A DNA stretch of 64,000 nucleotides from Pseudomonadota bacterium (GCA_029561145.1 JAKQJM010000115.1:2162-66161), one strand, 5' to 3'; positions 41,065 through 50,951 are shown, numbered from the stretch's first letter. The notes: generated from the sequence alone by a model not told the origin. Made by a program: numbers and translations.

Positions 41065-41336
41065 TGCGTTCGCATCCCCGCTGTCACGAGATGCGGCGAG
41101 TCCGGAAGCCGGTGAGTGCAATCCGCCTGGGGACGATGCCATCGCTGGCTGGATGTGGTGTTTTTTGTTTTCGTTTCCATTAAATGGCTTTTAATATTTG
41201 TCCGTGTCATTTGCCTGGGCAGCAGGTGCATGCATAATGGTCGGGCTCGCCCGGGCCAATGGCTTCCGTCAGCGAAGCTTCCGACCCGGTCGCAACGTTT
41301 TCGACCGGCCGCAGGCCAGTTACAGGGGAAGCAACC

Positions 41337-41693
41337 TTGAATGTCTTTGAGCGGTCCGTGAACGCCAGTCCGGACCGCTGCTTCTTCGCCATTGCATGCG
41401 CACGGTTCGCGATCGTGCTTGCGCTGGTCGGCAATCCCGTCAGTGCCGGCTTGCTGCCACTGCCAGACGACGCGCCATCGGGCAGCGGGAGTTTCGTGTT
41501 GACAGGCCACGTCATGGCCAATGGCGGCACTACGCGTGCGCGCAGTCCGTGCTTCGACCTCGCCGCGTCGATCGGACAGCCGGTCAGCGGGAGCACGCAA
41601 GGCGGAGCGTATTCGCTCTACGCCGGGTTCCTCGGTCCATCCAATCCCCACGATTCCATTTTTCGCAGCAGTTTCGAGGTGTGCCAGCCATGA
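41337..41693 (+). CDS. Small secreted protein with SIGQPxxG motif and C-terminal DxIFxxxFE motif
   Basis: Hydrophobic leader ending VSA; [24 protein letters not shown]; [13 protein letters not shown]; start uncertain (TTG 41337 or GTG 41358). Confidence 0.75.
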
Positions 41694-43066
41694 GAACCTT
41701 TTTCTTCGCGATCCTGTTCTTCATGGGCGCCATCGGCGGAAGTGCGCATGCGCAGACTGCCCAATTGCCGGACTTCACCTATCAGGGCCATCTTCAACAG
41801 AATGGACAGCCGTCCACCGGATTGTTTGATCTGGGATTTTCGTTGTACGACTCGGCCACCGGTGGCCTGCAGGTCGGAACGACGATTCTCGAACCCCAGT
41901 TCCCGGTGAGCGACGGGCTGTTCACGGTCAGCTTGAGTTTTCCTGGCGCGTTCACCGGGCAACAACGCTGGCTGCAGGTCAGCGTGAATGGTCAGCCGCT
42001 CCTGCCACGCCAGGCCGTTTCAACGGCACCGGTGGCGCAGTTCGCGCTCGATGGCAACCCGGGTCCACCCGGTGCGACAGGCGCCACCGGCGCGCAGGGT
42101 CAGCAAGGCGTGCCGGGTGCCACCGGATCCGCCGGACCGCAGGGCGAACCAGGCCCGCAAGGGCCGCAGGGCGTTCAGGGCGCTCCCGGTTCCACCGGTG
42201 CGCAGGGTCCGGCCGGATTGGAGGGGCCACAAGGCGAGCAAGGTCCTGCAGGACCGCAAGGCGAAACGGGGCCGGCCGGAACATCGTTTGCCGATGCGCC
42301 CGTCGATGGAAAGACCTATGCCCGAAAGAACAATGCCTGGATCGAGATCGACCCGACGTCGGGATTGCCCACCGTGCAGGCGGCGATCCTTGCCGACAAT
42401 CCAACGCTGTATTACCCGCTCGATGAAGCGCCTGGCTCCACGTCGTTTGTCGATCTGGGCTCGGCTGGCATCAATGTTGCGCTGAGTGGCGATGCGATAA
42501 CGCTCAAGCCCGGCTGGAGCCGTCTGTATCCGACCAGCGACGCGACCTACCTGCGCACCAATGAAGGCAATGGCAAGGCGAAGGCGATGGGCAACCCGAC
42601 CGGTACGGCGACTCCGAGCGGCTCGTTGAGCGTCGAGGCGATCTACAGTCCGCAGACCTTCGGTTCGGGCTATCAGCCGATCCTCGAGATCGGCGATGAC
42701 GCGCCCGAACTGCCATTTCTCTCGTTCGGCGTGATCGGATTGCAGCCGCGCATCGTCGTGGGCAACGGTGAACGTGTCGACCTTCCTGGACTCAATGCCG
42801 GACAGGCCTATCACATTGCCGCCGTCCTCGATGCATCGGTCAACGAAGTCCGCATGTATGTCAACGGGCGATTGCTCCAGGTGCAGTCATTGTTCGGCTA
42901 CGCGGGAACACTGGTCGCACCGACCGTGCATGTTGCCTCGCGTGCGGGTGCGGATCGTCCGTTCGTCTATTCCACGCTCGGCCACGTCGCGTTCTATTAC
43001 GGACAGGCGCTCTCCGTTGCGCAGATTTCAGCACACGCCAAGGCGGCGGGTCTTTACGGCCATTGA
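41690..43066 (+). CDS. Secreted collagen-like fibre protein: FTYQG domain, (Gly-X-Y)26, foldon-like motif, LamG/ConA-like head
   Basis: Signal peptide ending SAHA; FTYQGHL...; uninterrupted collagen; [16 protein letters not shown]; [14 protein letters not shown]...YHIAAV...RMYVNG. Confidence 0.88.
42053..42286 (+). repeat. Collagen Gly-X-Y repeat, 26 uninterrupted triplets
   Basis: GNP GPP GAT ... GET GPA GTS counted from the translation. Confidence 0.95.
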
Positions 43067-46276: not shown

Positions 46277-47350
46277 CTAGTTGCGCGCCGGCGTGTTTTC
46301 GGCGAAGTACTCGTGGCTGTCCGCGTTGGCCACCGCCTTGGCCGGATTGCTCACTGCGAGATTGTGCGCAGCGGTCTGGCCATAGGCGTTGTCCTTGGTC
46401 CCTGCGACGACGTTGAAGTGGCTGGTCTCGTGGACGAGGGTCCCTGCACGTGAATCGGTGCCGGTGTTCGGGGCCGACCAGAATGCGCCGCACAAATAGA
46501 CCTTGTAAGGCTGGGTCGGGTAGACATAGGCATAAGTGCCGCTGTCGGTGCACGAGCAATTGAACGTGAACGGCTGGGACGAAAGTGCGCTGTAGATATT
46601 GTTGAAGTGCGTACGCACGGTCGAATAGCGCGAGCTGTTGTAGGTGCCGAACCACCAGGTATAACGACTGCCCTGGGTGCCCGCGGCGAGATAACTCTTC
46701 GCATTGTTCGAGTAGGTCACCGAGGAGTTGCGTGCCGTGGCGAGCTGGGTCTGGCGTGTATTGCTGCAACTGACGAAGCTGTTCGTCGCGGCCAGCGGAA
46801 TGATCGGCGTGCGCAGTTGCTCGTCGCCCATGTTCAGCGCGTCGGGAGTCGAATCGGCATATACAGCCGTTGCTCCGCGGCTCATGTCGAACGCCCGCAA
46901 TGCGGAATCGACGCCACCCTTGTCGGCGGCCATGACTTCGCGCACGACTTCACGTGCTTCGCGCGCATAGCGGACCTCGAACTGGCCGCCGCCGCGCATG
47001 TCGTAGAGGGCGCTCAGCTCGACCTTGGCGTCGAGGCTTTCGCCCGGCCTGAGTTCGACGAAATCCTCGGCACGCGGTGCAACGCGCTTGTACATCGGAC
47101 CGACGTAGTCGACGGCCTTGCCGTTCTGGCTGACTTCGAACAGGTCGCTGGTGACGCCGTCGACTGGCGTCTGCCAGCGCAAGACGTGGATCGTCGATGA
47201 AGTCTGGTTGACCAGGCTGAAGTTGATCGTGGCGTTCGCGGCATCCTCGCCGGATGGCGACAGCGCGACCTCGAGACCGGCGGCCCAAACCGCCGATGAA
47301 CCCAACATTCCCACGGCAAACACGGCAAAACCCGCAAAGAGCTTGTGCAT
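46277..47350 (-). CDS. Secreted M35 (aspzincin) peptidyl-Lys metalloendopeptidase-like protease
   Basis: Signal plus prodomain; LVHETSHF and GTKDNAYG motifs; NADSHEYFAEN. Confidence 0.92.
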   Translation of the reverse strand: MHKLFAGFAVFAVGMLGSSAVWAAGLEVALSPSGEDAANATINFSLVNQTSSTIHVLRWQTPVDGVTSDLFEVSQNGKAVDYVGPMYKRVAPRAEDFVELRPGESLDAKVELSALYDMRGGGQFEVRYAREAREVVREVMAADKGGVDSALRAFDMSRGATAVYADSTPDALNMGDEQLRTPIIPLAATNSFVSCSNTRQTQLATARNSSVTYSNNAKSYLAAGTQGSRYTWWFGTYNSSRYSTVRTHFNNIYSALSSQPFTFNCSCTDSGTYAYVYPTQPYKVYLCGAFWSAPNTGTDSRAGTLVHETSHFNVVAGTKDNAYGQTAAHNLAVSNPAKAVANADSHEYFAENTPARN

Positions 47351-47498
47351 GTCAAACCTCGATGATGAGTAGTCGCTTCCTCCCCAGGAAACGAGCGCCA
47401 CGGACGTGACGCTGCGCGAGCGTAGGCGCGAAATTACCCTTGTGCAAGTATCGAAGCCGCATCTTGCGATTGTCGGTGCATCGCCGTCATATGCACTT

Positions 47499-47527
47499 GG
47501 GTCGCGCCATTCGACCTGGCGCGACCC
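47499..47527. terminator. Stem-loop downstream of the tricorn-like gene
   Basis: 11-bp perfect stem GGGTCGCGCCA/TGGCGCGACCC. Confidence 0.6.
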
Positions 47528-47546
47528 TGCGGATGCGGGCGACTGC

Positions 47547-50500
47547 TCAGCGCATGTCGGCAGGTGCCTTGACCGGATCGGCCGGGCGCGGTGGCAGGCT
47601 GATCGGCGCGGCGGTGATCTGCGCCTTGATCTCGGCGATGGCGCGATCGAGCTGCATGTCGCGCCCGGCCAACTCGGAGGCGACATCATTCTCGACGACG
47701 ATGTCGGGGTCGACGCCGTGGCCTTCGATGATCCACTGGCCATGGACATCCGCGCTGGCAAACTGTGGAACATTGACGGTTCCGCCGTCGATCAGCGGAC
47801 CCCAGTCGTTGATGCCGACGACACCGCCCCAGGTTCGGGTGCCAATCAACGGGCCGAGTCTGGCCTGCTTGAACATGTAGGAGAAGATGTCGCCGTCGGA
47901 AGCGGTCGTGCCATTGCACAGCGCGGCCAGGTGTCCGACATAGGTCTGCTGCGGATAGGTGCCGGTTATCTCGGCGCCGCGGCCATAGTCGAGGCCGAGC
48001 AATTTGCGCGACAGGCGCTCGATGATCATCGCCGAGACATTGCCGCCGCCGTTGTCGCGTACATCGATGACGAGCCCCTGTTTGCGCAGCTGCGGGTAGA
48101 ACCACTTGATGAATTCGCGGATGCCGTCACCGCCCATGTCGGGAATGTGCAGGTAACCGATCTCGCCCTTGCTGGCCTCGGCCACATAGTCGCGATTGCG
48201 GCTCGTCCATGCGTAGTAGTTGAGATCGGCTTCGCTGTCGATCGGATTGACCAGCACCGTGCGCGCGCCTTCGATGGTCGCGCGGGAATTTACCGTCAGC
48301 TGGATGAGCTGGCCTTTCGGCGAACGCAGCAGGCGATACGGATTGTCGTCGCCGTTCAACGATTGGCCATTGATCGCGAGCACAAAGTCGCCTTGCTTCA
48401 CGTTGATGCCGACTTCGGTCAGTGGCGAGCGATAGCGCTCCTCGTCGTTCTCGCCAGCAAGGATCTTCGCAATGCGATAGCGGTTCGCGCTAGCGTCGAG
48501 CTCGAAGCGTGCGCCGAGCAGTGAGACGTGCGGTCGATCGGGCATGCCGAGATCGCCACCGCTGACATAGGCGTGCGAGCTCGACAGCTCGGCGACCATT
48601 TGGCCGATCAGGTAGTTGAGGTCGCTGCGATCGCCGACATCGGCGAGCTGCGGTTCGTACTTCGCGCGTAGCGCCTGCCAGTCGTAGCCGTGCATGTTCT
48701 GCACGTAGTAGTGATCGCGGAAACGACGCCAGACTTCGCGGAAGATCTCGGCATACTCGGCCTTCGGATCAACCTGCGCATAGAGGCCGTCGAGCTTGAT
48801 TTCCCTGGCTTCGACCTTCGCTTCGCCGAGATCGACGCGCTTGTAGGCGTCCTCGCTTTTCACGATCAGCGTGGAACCATCCCGCGACAGGGCGAGATCA
48901 TCGACGCCTTCGAGCACGTCCTTGCTTTCGCGATCCTCGAATGACCAGGCCTTCACGCGCGCCTTCGTCGCGCTGTCGCGACCATAATAGAAGCCATCGC
49001 TGACCACGTAGAGCAGCGATTTCCCGGTCGCCGCGATCCATTGCACGTTGTCGGGCTCGACCGGCACGCGCACGAGGCGATCGGCAAGGCCGTCGAACTC
49101 GATGCGATCGTCGGGTTTCGTCGGCGCCGGGTTCTTGCCCTTTGCCTTCGTTTCGTCGTCCTTGTCGGATTTGTCGTCGCCCTTCGTCGCGCTGTCATTG
49201 CGCGGAGAGAAAGGATTTTCGACATCGCGGCGCAGGGTCAGGGCAAAGATCCCGCCGCTGCGGTTGCTGGCGAAGTTCCATTCGATGCCGGAGATCTGCG
49301 GTGCCCATTCGCGATCGCCGATGAAGTACAGGATCTTCCCGTCCGGCGAGAATGCGGGGTTGTACGCGTTGACGCGGGCATCCCCGATCGGATGGTTGGC
49401 CCGGGCCGCGACATCGTAGACGTGCAGTCGCGGCAGTTGGGTACCGGTGTCGGTCAACGTATAGGCGAGATAGTGGCTGCCGGGCGACCAGGCGTAGTCG
49501 CGCCGTGAAAACCCCGGGTCATCGGCAACCAGCACGCTGGCGCCGCCATTGGCAGGAACCACATGCAGGCGACTTTCGTTGTCGATGAAGGCGATGCGCG
49601 AGCCATCCGGAGCCCAGCGCGGCGCATACAGGCGCCCGAGCTTTTCCGTGCTCAGCTGGCGCGGATCGCTGCCGTCGGCATTGCGTGCCCAGATGGCCTC
49701 TTCGCCGCTTTCGTCCGACACATAGGCGATACGCTTGCCATCGGCCGACCAGGACGCCTCGCGTTCGTGTGCGCCAGGTGTGTGGGTCAGGTCCAGCGTG
49801 ATGCCGTGCTCGAGCGGCACGTTGAATACCTCGCCGCGTGCGACGAACGCCGCGCGCTTGCCGTTCGGGCTCAGCGAGAAGTCCTCGATGTACTTCGCGA
49901 CGCTGCGCGTGCTGGCGCGCGAACGCACCAGGTCGCTTGGCACGTTGATCTCGAGTTGCCTGTCCTGCCTGGCCGAAGTGTCGTACAGATGGAGCAATCC
50001 ATCGACTTCGAACACGATCTGGTGCTTGCCGTCGCCGCTGGCCCAGCGCGCGTCCTTGCCCTTGTAGTCGGTCAATTGCGTGGTATCGCCACTTGCGGTG
50101 TCGTAGCGGTAGAGATTCAGGTGCTCGCCGCGATCGGCCAGGAAGTAGATCGCATCGCCCATCCACATCGGATCGCGATCGGTGTTGACATCGTTGGTGA
50201 TGTTCTTCGCCGATTTCCCGGCGATGTCGTAGATATAGAGATCCTGCGCCCAGCCGCCTACATAGCGATTCCAGGTGCGGTAGTCGCGGAACTTCGGCGA
50301 GTAGACGATCTGTTGCCCATTCGGGGAATAGTCGCCACTGCCGGCGGTCGGCATCGGCAAGGCCGTCGCCAGCCCGCCCGCCGTCGAGACGCTGAACAAT
50401 TGCGGATTGGATATGCCGACCGCATAGCGGATCGATCGGAAGATCACCGCCTTGCCATCCGGACTCCAGCCGTAGACCTGGCTGTCGATGCCCCAGCGCT

Positions 50501-50846
50501 GGGGCAGCGGACCGGGTGTCGGATACCAGGTCAACTGACGCGGCTCGCCACCGCTGGCGGGAATCACGAAAACCTGGTCGTCGCCACTGTACTGGCCGGT
50601 AAACGCGATCTGGCTGCAGTCGGGGGAAAAGCGGGCGGCCTGCTCGACGCCCGGACCCGCGGTAACGCGGATGGCCGTTCCCCCGTTCGTACCGACCGTC
50701 CACAGGTCCCCTGCATAGGTGAACGCGATGCGATCGCCGCAGACATCCGGGAAGCGCAGCAGGCGCGTCACCGCGTCTGCAGACGACGGCAGCGCGGCCA
50801 TGAGAAAAGAAAGGGAAAACAGCGACAGCATGATTCGATCACGCAT
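47547..50846 (-). CDS. Tricorn-like S41 protease with signal peptide
   Basis: LLRFPD, PD40/propeller repeats, PDZ, GYLHIPDM, DVRDNGGG, TASDGD, GTRTWGG. Confidence 0.93.
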   Translation of the reverse strand: MRDRIMLSLFSLSFLMAALPSSADAVTRLLRFPDVCGDRIAFTYAGDLWTVGTNGGTAIRVTAGPGVEQAARFSPDCSQIAFTGQYSGDDQVFVIPASGGEPRQLTWYPTPGPLPQRWGIDSQVYGWSPDGKAVIFRSIRYAVGISNPQLFSVSTAGGLATALPMPTAGSGDYSPNGQQIVYSPKFRDYRTWNRYVGGWAQDLYIYDIAGKSAKNITNDVNTDRDPMWMGDAIYFLADRGEHLNLYRYDTASGDTTQLTDYKGKDARWASGDGKHQIVFEVDGLLHLYDTSARQDRQLEINVPSDLVRSRASTRSVAKYIEDFSLSPNGKRAAFVARGEVFNVPLEHGITLDLTHTPGAHEREASWSADGKRIAYVSDESGEEAIWARNADGSDPRQLSTEKLGRLYAPRWAPDGSRIAFIDNESRLHVVPANGGASVLVADDPGFSRRDYAWSPGSHYLAYTLTDTGTQLPRLHVYDVAARANHPIGDARVNAYNPAFSPDGKILYFIGDREWAPQISGIEWNFASNRSGGIFALTLRRDVENPFSPRNDSATKGDDKSDKDDETKAKGKNPAPTKPDDRIEFDGLADRLVRVPVEPDNVQWIAATGKSLLYVVSDGFYYGRDSATKARVKAWSFEDRESKDVLEGVDDLALSRDGSTLIVKSEDAYKRVDLGEAKVEAREIKLDGLYAQVDPKAEYAEIFREVWRRFRDHYYVQNMHGYDWQALRAKYEPQLADVGDRSDLNYLIGQMVAELSSSHAYVSGGDLGMPDRPHVSLLGARFELDASANRYRIAKILAGENDEERYRSPLTEVGINVKQGDFVLAINGQSLNGDDNPYRLLRSPKGQLIQLTVNSRATIEGARTVLVNPIDSEADLNYYAWTSRNRDYVAEASKGEIGYLHIPDMGGDGIREFIKWFYPQLRKQGLVIDVRDNGGGNVSAMIIERLSRKLLGLDYGRGAEITGTYPQQTYVGHLAALCNGTTASDGDIFSYMFKQARLGPLIGTRTWGGVVGINDWGPLIDGGTVNVPQFASADVHGQWIIEGHGVDPDIVVENDVASELAGRDMQLDRAIAEIKAQITAAPISLPPRPADPVKAPADMR

Positions 50847-50951
50847 GCGGCGACTCCAGCGGTTTCGGGCGATGCAGATTGATAGTCCAGCGGCTGCCAG
50901 GATGCCAGCGCCACAAGTCACGTCGGCACGCTGCGCTGCGGCGTGGACGGA

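Follow-up and report, generated by a model that had tools for sequence, protein, structure and literature searches.

How does a secreted bacterial protein come to carry, directly behind its collagen-like stalk, a short motif resembling the foldon of phage T4 fibritin, and what might such a motif do there? This question is raised by a fibre gene of Dokdonella, located in a 64-kb stretch of the chromosome (hereafter the window) within a 3.6-Mb genome. An earlier note on this DNA had described the product as a natural fusion of collagen and foldon, in which a domesticated phage trimerisation motif sets the register of the stalk and presents three LamG/ConA-like heads. Our analyses lead to a related picture: the fibre is probably made by the cell, exported through the Sec pathway and trimeric, with a foldon-type clamp joining the collagen stalk to lectin-like heads. 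The parts of the gene are as follows.

41690..43066, plus strand: fibre gene (P0001), 458 amino acids (aa) plus stop, from the open reading frame (ORF) list and the translation of 41690-43063
41690..41752, plus strand: signal peptide, aa 1-21, predicted cleavage before Q22, read from the sequence
41753..42052, plus strand: conserved beta-rich N-terminal domain (N-domain), aa 22-121 (100 aa), AlphaFold strands 29-111
42053..42286, plus strand: collagen-like stalk of 26 unbroken Gly-X-Y triplets, aa 122-199, by regular-expression count and Pfam Collagen
42287..42349, plus strand: predicted foldon-family beta-hairpin motif, aa 200-220, by profile searches, hhalign and AlphaFold
42350..43063, plus strand: linker and predicted LamG/ConA-like jelly-roll head, aa 221-458 (238 aa), by Pfam and Foldseek

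The signal peptide, which was read directly from the sequence and not by a predictor, has the make-up typical of a Sec signal: its n-region is basic, 14 residues form the hydrophobic core, and A-x-A precedes Q22. Residues A21 and Q22 are unchanged across an alignment of 19 family members, and the hydrophobic leader is alike in the full-length members of the family. Close homologues of the fibre fall into about 40 clusters at 64-81% identity, found in Dokdonella and other Xanthomonadales records. In the AlphaFold model, a monomer built on 19 close homologues, the predicted local distance difference test score (pLDDT) of the N-domain is 64-82 per 10-residue block. The 26 perfect triplets lie directly before the motif, as the earlier note had counted and placed them, and the stalk passes the gathering cut-off of Pfam Collagen (PF01391; 54.1 bits vs 27.2, E 1.3e-14). 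A short helix at aa 229-236 lies in the linker between the motif and the head.

The resemblance to the foldon had been put at eight identities over 22 aligned residues in exact register, and this count holds. In an ungapped comparison of the T4 foldon with aa 199-220 (DNA 42284-42349, beginning with S199, which occupies the Y position of the last triplet), A, P, D, G, Y, R, K and W are identical in a single register, and the next best register gives three identities. The T4 foldon signature appears in this one register as D202 (for Glu5), A203, P204, D206, G207, Y210, R212 and W217; that is, the motif keeps an acidic residue at foldon position 5, together with A6, P7, D9, G10, Y13, R15 and W20. 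These foldon-shared residues are unchanged in the 19 family members, with the exception of D206, which is either Asp or Asn, and the residues invariant across the family are F200, D202, A203, P204, G207, Y210, A211, R212 and W217. Most of them correspond to what we take to be the elements holding the T4 foldon trimer together, namely the Glu5-Arg15 salt bridge and a core of Ala, Pro, Tyr and Trp. In addition, the AlphaFold strands at 209-213 and 216-220 form a hairpin that matches the register of the foldon hairpin, with modest confidence (pLDDT 58-65).

Database searches point in the same direction. A phmmer search of the PDB with a 45-aa piece returned 123 sequences at E ≤ 10, the best 60 of which were all fibritin, foldon-tagged constructs or gp54 of phage JBD30; with this piece alone, foldon chains scored E 0.04-1 and gp54 E 0.0011. 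Two profiles were then compared with the 177,635 PDB sequences, the best 60 matches being listed in each case. The family junction profile, built from 29 distinct Dokdonella-family junction sequences chosen without pattern selection, matched gp54 (E 5.4e-7), the 27-residue foldon 1rfo (E 7.5e-4) and the variant 8udn (E 2e-5), and the best 60 of its 563 matches comprised only fibritin, foldon-fusion constructs and gp54, with no unrelated protein among them. The broad motif profile, built from 124 diverse instances of DAPxDGxxYxRxxxxW (the invariant pattern of the family) in bacterial genomes and viral contigs, matched 1rfo at E 1.5e-7 and gp54 at E 2.2e-9, and its best 60 matches were likewise foldon-bearing chains and gp54 only.

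The comparison with Fibritin_C that the earlier note had suggested gave a divided answer. The hhalign alignment of the family profile with the T4 foldon reached a probability of 95.9%, placing F200-I220 on I3-L23, but a single copy of the motif stays below the Pfam Fibritin_C (PF07921) cut-off: the 45-aa piece reaches 13.8 bits (E 0.065) where 21 are required, with the match falling on the foldon positions of the model (71-90 of 93). Whole-protein scans with Pfam, PHROGs and NCBIfam did not pick up the motif. Proteins with 5-13 tandem copies of the motif do pass Fibritin_C, at 75-102 bits and E 1e-21 to 1e-29, by the summed copies only. Such arrays were seen in five proteins (P0044, P0054, P0055, P0057 and P0065), whose foldon-type hairpin units repeat with a period of about 24-27 residues.

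These data bear on whether the resemblance reflects chance or convergence in a short linker rich in Gly, Pro and aromatic residues, which we consider extremely improbable. Short motifs can converge, the identities number only 8 of 22 and the single copy is sub-threshold for Pfam; against this stand the PDB profile searches with their exclusively foldon-bearing and gp54 top matches, the hhalign probability, the arrays that pass Fibritin_C, and a continuum of intermediates leading to the T4-like fibritins. The last is seen in a tblastn comparison with annotated phages, in which 596 records connected the motif with wac genes of the T4-like kind, fibres of the phi92 type and DMS3/JBD30-type proteins. 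Furthermore, a single occurrence of the back-translated motif pattern was counted in the window, none in 100 shuffles and one in the 3.6-Mb genome. The resemblance is more than chance, and at the level of sequence the motif is a member of the foldon family; in the fibre it would be expected to form trimers.

The arrangement of stalk and motif within the family is consistent with such a role. The junction, G-X-Y followed directly by F-x-DAP, is identical across the family members examined, and the register of the motif is fixed at the collagen end in every one of them. The collagen is always a single block that ends exactly one residue ahead of F200, and the number of triplets per stalk ranges from 11 to 61 across the family, even among proteins with identical signal peptides. 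A constant clamp on a stalk whose length changes rapidly is in keeping with a C-terminal element that sets the register.

We propose that the N-domain would most likely dock the fibre on the cell surface, possibly through a small secreted and co-translated partner protein described below, and that a collagen triple helix of variable length would serve as the stalk. Where the collagen ends on its C-terminal side, each chain would contribute one foldon-type hairpin to a three-fold clamp, which may gather the three chains, fix where the triple helix ends and join it to three LamG/ConA-like heads, and the heads may bind a carbohydrate-type ligand. LamG-type domains are usually monomeric folds, and thus a separate trimerising element would be needed atop the triple helix; an element of this kind beneath LamG heads would be analogous to the neck of the collectins and the 'knee' of gp54.

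The head itself was predicted to be LamG/ConA-like, in line with the earlier note. It matches Laminin_G_3 (PF13385) at 27.5 bits (E 4e-6), 0.1 bit below the cut-off of 27.6, precomputed annotation assigns PF13385 to the fibre family, and remote homologues of the head pass the model at 34-62 bits. A Foldseek search with the head, starting from a low-confidence model, found CBM40, sialidase lectin domains and pentraxin jelly rolls at E of about 1e-4. Matches to clostridial neurotoxin receptor-binding domains, at low template modelling (TM) scores, were set aside as reflecting the generic jelly-roll fold only. Clear LamG relatives of the head (30-37% identity) are found as C-terminal tips in many tail-fibre-like proteins that have no signal peptide, some of them with DUF2793 N-termini like that of JBD30 gp54; the foldon-type motif was found in none of these LamG-tip relatives. 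A tblastn search with the head against 50,697 annotated phage records gave no match, so a phage origin of the head is suggested only through these remote tail-fibre-like homologues. The motif and the type of head are typical of phage fibre proteins.

The gene itself points to the cell. Among its Pfam-scanned neighbours are an ABC transporter with auxiliary proteins, DUF4340, DUF423, a penicillin amidase, an M35 peptidase and a tricorn-like protease, and no phage genes were found by Pfam among the window neighbours on either side or beside the gene in two relatives on large contigs. When 13 loci were compared all-against-all, the gene order of the window was kept in one clade, and a second clade keeps another order, in which genes for a glycosyltransferase and a polysaccharide deacetylase lie downstream. 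Pairwise ratios of nonsynonymous to synonymous substitution rates (dN/dS) are 0.15 (N-domain), 0.24 (motif) and 0.23 (head) at a dS of about 1, indicating purifying selection. A prophage remnant was rejected on the strength of the signal peptide, the context, the synteny and the dN/dS values, and the Sec-exported, non-phage character that the earlier note had assigned to the protein is borne out by the conserved signal peptide and the phage-free chromosomal context.

The wider proposal that the gene belongs, as a remnant or as a working component, to an element derived from a phage (a prophage tail fibre, a tailocin or a gene-transfer-agent fibre) could draw on the collagen, foldon-type motif and LamG-like tip, which are typical phage fibre modules, on the PHROG tail-fibre families that match the collagen part, and on the G+C content at third codon positions (GC3), which at 0.70 is somewhat below the approximately 0.80 of the neighbours; the overall G+C content of the gene equals the genome average. 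This proposal is very unlikely. The signal peptide is conserved and cleavable, the neighbours are non-phage in the window and in two other genomes, synteny is kept within clades under purifying selection, and the N-domain is common to hundreds of secreted non-phage proteins. As the PHROG tail-fibre and NCBIfam adhesin matches cover the Gly-X-Y region only, they were not taken as evidence of phage or adhesin identity. Two GspD secretins are encoded in the genome, meaning that a route across the outer membrane exists, and the fibre may be exported to the surface by this type II route. Beside the penicillin amidase, just downstream of it, the window encodes a secreted-looking M35 (Aspzincin) lysine-specific metalloendopeptidase (46277-47773, minus strand); the ORF listed for the tricorn-like protease (PD40, Tricorn and S41 domains; 47547-50921, minus strand) overlaps the M35 ORF by about 230 bases.

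The fibre is one member of a large modular family defined by the N-domain. At E ≤ 0.001 this domain has 232 relatives, the 120 listed being 60-80% identical, in Dokdonella, Ahniella, Tahibacter and other Rhodanobacteraceae; their C-termini vary, including sequences with no Pfam match, collagen combined with other domains, He_PIG, pectinesterase and PQQ-like domains. With the N-domain of a more typical paralogue as the query, relatives at 44-59% identity were found in records labelled Verrucomicrobia, Planctomycetota, Chloroflexia, Acidobacteria and others, and many of these carry Peptidase_S74 at the end and go by the name 'tail fiber domain-containing protein'. The Dokdonella genome has four N-domain genes. 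One paralogous fibre (C141:113868-116015) has an N-domain with 58% identity, 142 Gly-X-Y triplets and no foldon-type motif, and ends in a different C-terminal beta domain of about 120 aa. The two N-domain paralogues without collagen (C12:2432-4225 and C12:14585-15379) comprise one with repeated Cys-containing units (e.g., ISYYD..NG.LK...C) of beta-propeller-like appearance and one with a short tail of about 150 aa. A further collagen-like ORF (C66:71437-71940, plus strand), about 5 kb past the window end, has Gly-X-Y blocks of 24, 8, 7, 6 and 8 triplets split by single-residue breaks, and also lacks the foldon-type motif.

The N-domain family brings up another explanation of the hairpin, namely that it is a mere hinge or adaptor (a 'knee'), that the N-domain or the head sets the trimer and its register, and that the foldon-like sequence came with the head and has no nucleating role. 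Several observations weigh against a foldon-type clamp. The foldon-type motif is present in none of the 203 other N-domain proteins sampled, 29 of which have collagen, so their collagen stalks do not as a rule require a foldon, and nucleation of the trimer could instead fall to the N-domain or the head. The motif is internal and lacks the C-terminal STFL segment of the foldon, unlike in T4, and its single copy is sub-threshold for Fibritin_C. The AlphaFold monomer of the fibre is of low confidence, with a mean pLDDT of 53.7 and only 58-65 at the motif, and the head narrowly misses the Laminin_G_3 cut-off and is unmatched among the annotated phages.

A hinge would agree with these 29 collagen-bearing proteins and the 142-triplet paralogue, and in the Scl proteins of Streptococcus it is an N-terminal domain that nucleates the collagen. 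In gp54, moreover, the segment matching the motif belongs to what has been called the 'knee', and the trimer is anchored by an N-terminal thigh (PMC11445458). However, the foldon-shared residues are invariant across the Dokdonella family, and the junction is constant to the last triplet whereas the length of the stalk is not; neither speaks for a simple hinge. The invariant residues also include what we take to be the acidic-Arg pair and the Trp/Tyr/Pro core of the foldon trimer, and LamG-type domains are usually monomeric folds. Finally, foldon motifs of the T4 and JS98 types alone are reported to suffice for trimer folding (PMC3797505). Thus, a hinge without a nucleating role appears rather unlikely, and a trimerising clamp is the reading that we prefer.

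Directly upstream of the fibre gene lies a second gene, with which it forms a two-gene module:

41337..41693, plus strand: small secreted partner gene, from the ORF list, no Pfam match
41211..41238, plus strand: promoter-like site TTGCCT-16-CATAAT, upstream of the two-gene module, by consensus scan

The start of the partner gene is likely a TTG at 41337 that follows a GGGGAAG motif, the longest ORF beginning at an ATG at 41259, and its stop overlaps the start of the fibre gene as ATGA. A homologous small gene was found in 10 of 13 family loci, and it is called with the same 4-bp overlap in two of the family records (L001 and L003). In the Dokdonella genome, three of the four N-domain genes are preceded by a homologue of the small protein (in the window, at C141:113497-114012 and at C12:14046-14615). 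The small protein has a signal peptide, two repeats of the G-G-x-Y-x-L type and a C-terminus of the D-x-I-F-x-x-x-F-E type, and those of Dokdonella carry a Cys in or near the C-terminal tail. A small gene of similar pattern was recognised by eye upstream of an N-domain gene of Marinicella (L243:2720-2983). The promoter-like site is a consensus match only, in an AT-rich intergenic stretch, with one found where shuffled sequences lead one to expect 0.4.

This two-gene module of fibre and small partner is probably the more novel aspect of the locus. It is possible, and we put this forward tentatively, that the fibre and its overlapping partner are one instance of an undescribed display system for surface fibres in several bacterial groups, into whose frame bacteria swap whole fibre modules of phages. 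In such a system a small secreted adaptor with a D-x-I-F-x-x-G-F-E C-terminus could pair with the conserved N-terminal dock of the fibre, the swapped-in cassette could consist of collagen, foldon and receptor-binding head, and the foldon-type clamp could allow an intrinsically monomeric lectin head to ride on a collagen stalk.

Where such a cassette may have come from is suggested by the distribution of the motif, which behaves as an independent module. There are at least 263 instances in genomes and viral contigs, ahead of many unrelated sequences; the motif may also be followed by a poly-Gly linker, by further copies of itself or by the C-terminus of the protein. The counts from these whole-collection scans refer to the matches listed and are lower bounds. 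In the viral contigs (IMG/VR), 14 of the 134 listed instances lie within 8 residues after at least five Gly-X-Y triplets, and the junctions often match that of the fibre: GGTFADAP (L158 and L185), GVTFPDAP (L174) and GSGLADAP. Natural collagen-foldon junctions are a recurrent design in viral contigs and tail-fibre-like proteins. In three tail-fibre-like proteins, from Ensifer (L021), Mesorhizobium (L029) and a further record (L107), collagen is followed by the motif (directly in the first two), about 15 residues then remain to the C-terminus, and the motif recurs in relaxed form upstream of the collagen; judged by their sequences, these proteins would be natural counterparts of the engineered collagen-foldon fusion. 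A search of 401 genomes of the phylum with the strict motif pattern found it in the Dokdonella source genome only and in none of the other 400. The motif is missing from the 203 other N-domain proteins sampled. Most simply, a collagen-foldon or foldon-head cassette of the phage-fibre type would have been grafted once onto the cellular N-domain frame, in the Dokdonella lineage.

The novelty of the natural collagen-foldon fusion is accordingly to be limited to its cellular, secreted setting, given that such junctions are common in viral contigs. The unusual nature of the protein had been overstated in the earlier note, since secreted cellular fibres of phage-like modules are a described class (mosaic adhesive trimer, MAT; PMC10769870) and the fibre is one of a large N-domain family. 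No established principle is changed by the finding, and the biochemical roles proposed here are read from sequence. Nevertheless, nature appears to use the collagen-foldon solution repeatedly, with a shorter conserved junction (G-X-Y followed by F, I or L and then x-DAP), which in the Dokdonella family tolerates stalks of 11-61 triplets, and the sequences offer candidate clamps other than that of T4 for collagen folding and biomaterials. A collagen-shafted, foldon-jointed member is added to the bacterial surface fibres of phage-type modules, and this class of fibres is linked to a small, apparently co-translated partner protein.

Much of what surrounds this fibre is already known: the foldon, phage fibres with a foldon and a head, collagen-like phage fibres, secreted collagen-like adhesins such as Lcl, and cellular fibres of the MAT type. 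The foldon at the C-terminus of T4 fibritin (gpwac; PF07921; 1aa0, 1avy and 1rfo) belongs, by profile comparison, to the same family as the Dokdonella motif, in which the hairpin is predicted at the same place. The motif differs in being internal, placed after the collagen and before a 238-aa head, in a protein that is cellular and secreted; it is part of no virion and does not cap a phage neck whisker at its C-terminus. Attaching the T4 foldon to the C-termini of collagen peptides is a standard engineering trick, and in the (GPP)10-foldon construct (1nay) the foldon likewise follows a collagen triple helix at its C-terminal end; the construct has a Gly-Ser linker, in contrast to the direct joint of G-X-Y to F-A-DAP in the Dokdonella fibre. 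Animal collectins also place a separate trimerising neck between the collagen and the lectin heads, although this neck is an alpha-helical coiled coil.

Among the phage proteins, the closest solved sequence to the motif is that of gp54, the receptor-binding protein of Pseudomonas phage JBD30 (8rk3 and 8rk4; DUF2793), MSDAPSDGKAYARESGAWTEL, the matching segment being residues 121-144. gp54 is a homotrimer with an N-terminal thigh that serves as the anchor and ends at residue 118, a hairpin 'knee', described as an antiparallel beta-sheet with a short helix after it, and a sugar-binding-like 'foot' (PMC11445458). The matching segment opens the 'knee', and the order of anchor, knee and foot resembles that of stalk, hairpin and lectin-like head in Dokdonella. 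However, gp54 is a phage baseplate protein without signal peptide or collagen, is anchored by its DUF2793 thigh and has a foot for which a different fold is described. In the phi92 gp151 type ('lateral tail fiber protein with type I collagen domain'), the motif is 68% identical over 22 residues and is followed by a head of about 130 aa, but it lies away from the collagen stretch, and the anchor is Tail_spike_N. The viral collagen-foldon fibres in general are virion proteins with other N-terminal anchors and no signal peptides. Tandem and internal foldons are known in phage fibres (PMC3797505), and Fibritin_C occurs ahead of SGNH heads in Acinetobacter phages (PMC11058221).

Among the cellular systems, the MAT fibres of Bdellovibrio bacteriovorus are similar in having a signal peptide, a beta-rich N-domain, a fibre and a swappable tip, and make up multi-gene families, cellular in origin and containing phage-like modules (PMC10769870). 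They come in S74 and non-S74 versions, and their N-domain has been proposed to lie on the cell surface (PMC10769870). Peptidase_S74 often forms the tip in relatives of the Dokdonella N-domain, as in the S74 MATs, the two N-domains being likened by architecture alone. In contrast, the shafts of MAT fibres are described as beta-prisms and beta-helices, and neither a foldon-type motif nor a small upstream partner is described there (PMC10769870). Lcl of Legionella shares the signal sequence, an N-terminal surface-targeting segment, a collagen stalk of variable repeat number and a C-terminal ligand-binding head (a 'lollipop'), and is exported by type II secretion (PMC11162425); its head is itself a trimer of another fold, without a foldon. 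The NCBIfam models for Lcl and Scl (NF046116, NF038330 and NF038329) scored the Dokdonella fibre at only 48-52 bits against cut-offs of 325-500 and covered aa 122-209 only, with the Lcl model reaching 48 of the required 500 bits on the collagen part. A literature search, incomplete in its coverage, found no description of a natural collagen-foldon junction in a cellular, signal-peptide-bearing protein, nor of a conserved junction rule. Taken together, these comparisons indicate that what is new in the Dokdonella fibre is the foldon-type junction within a cellular, secreted collagen fibre.

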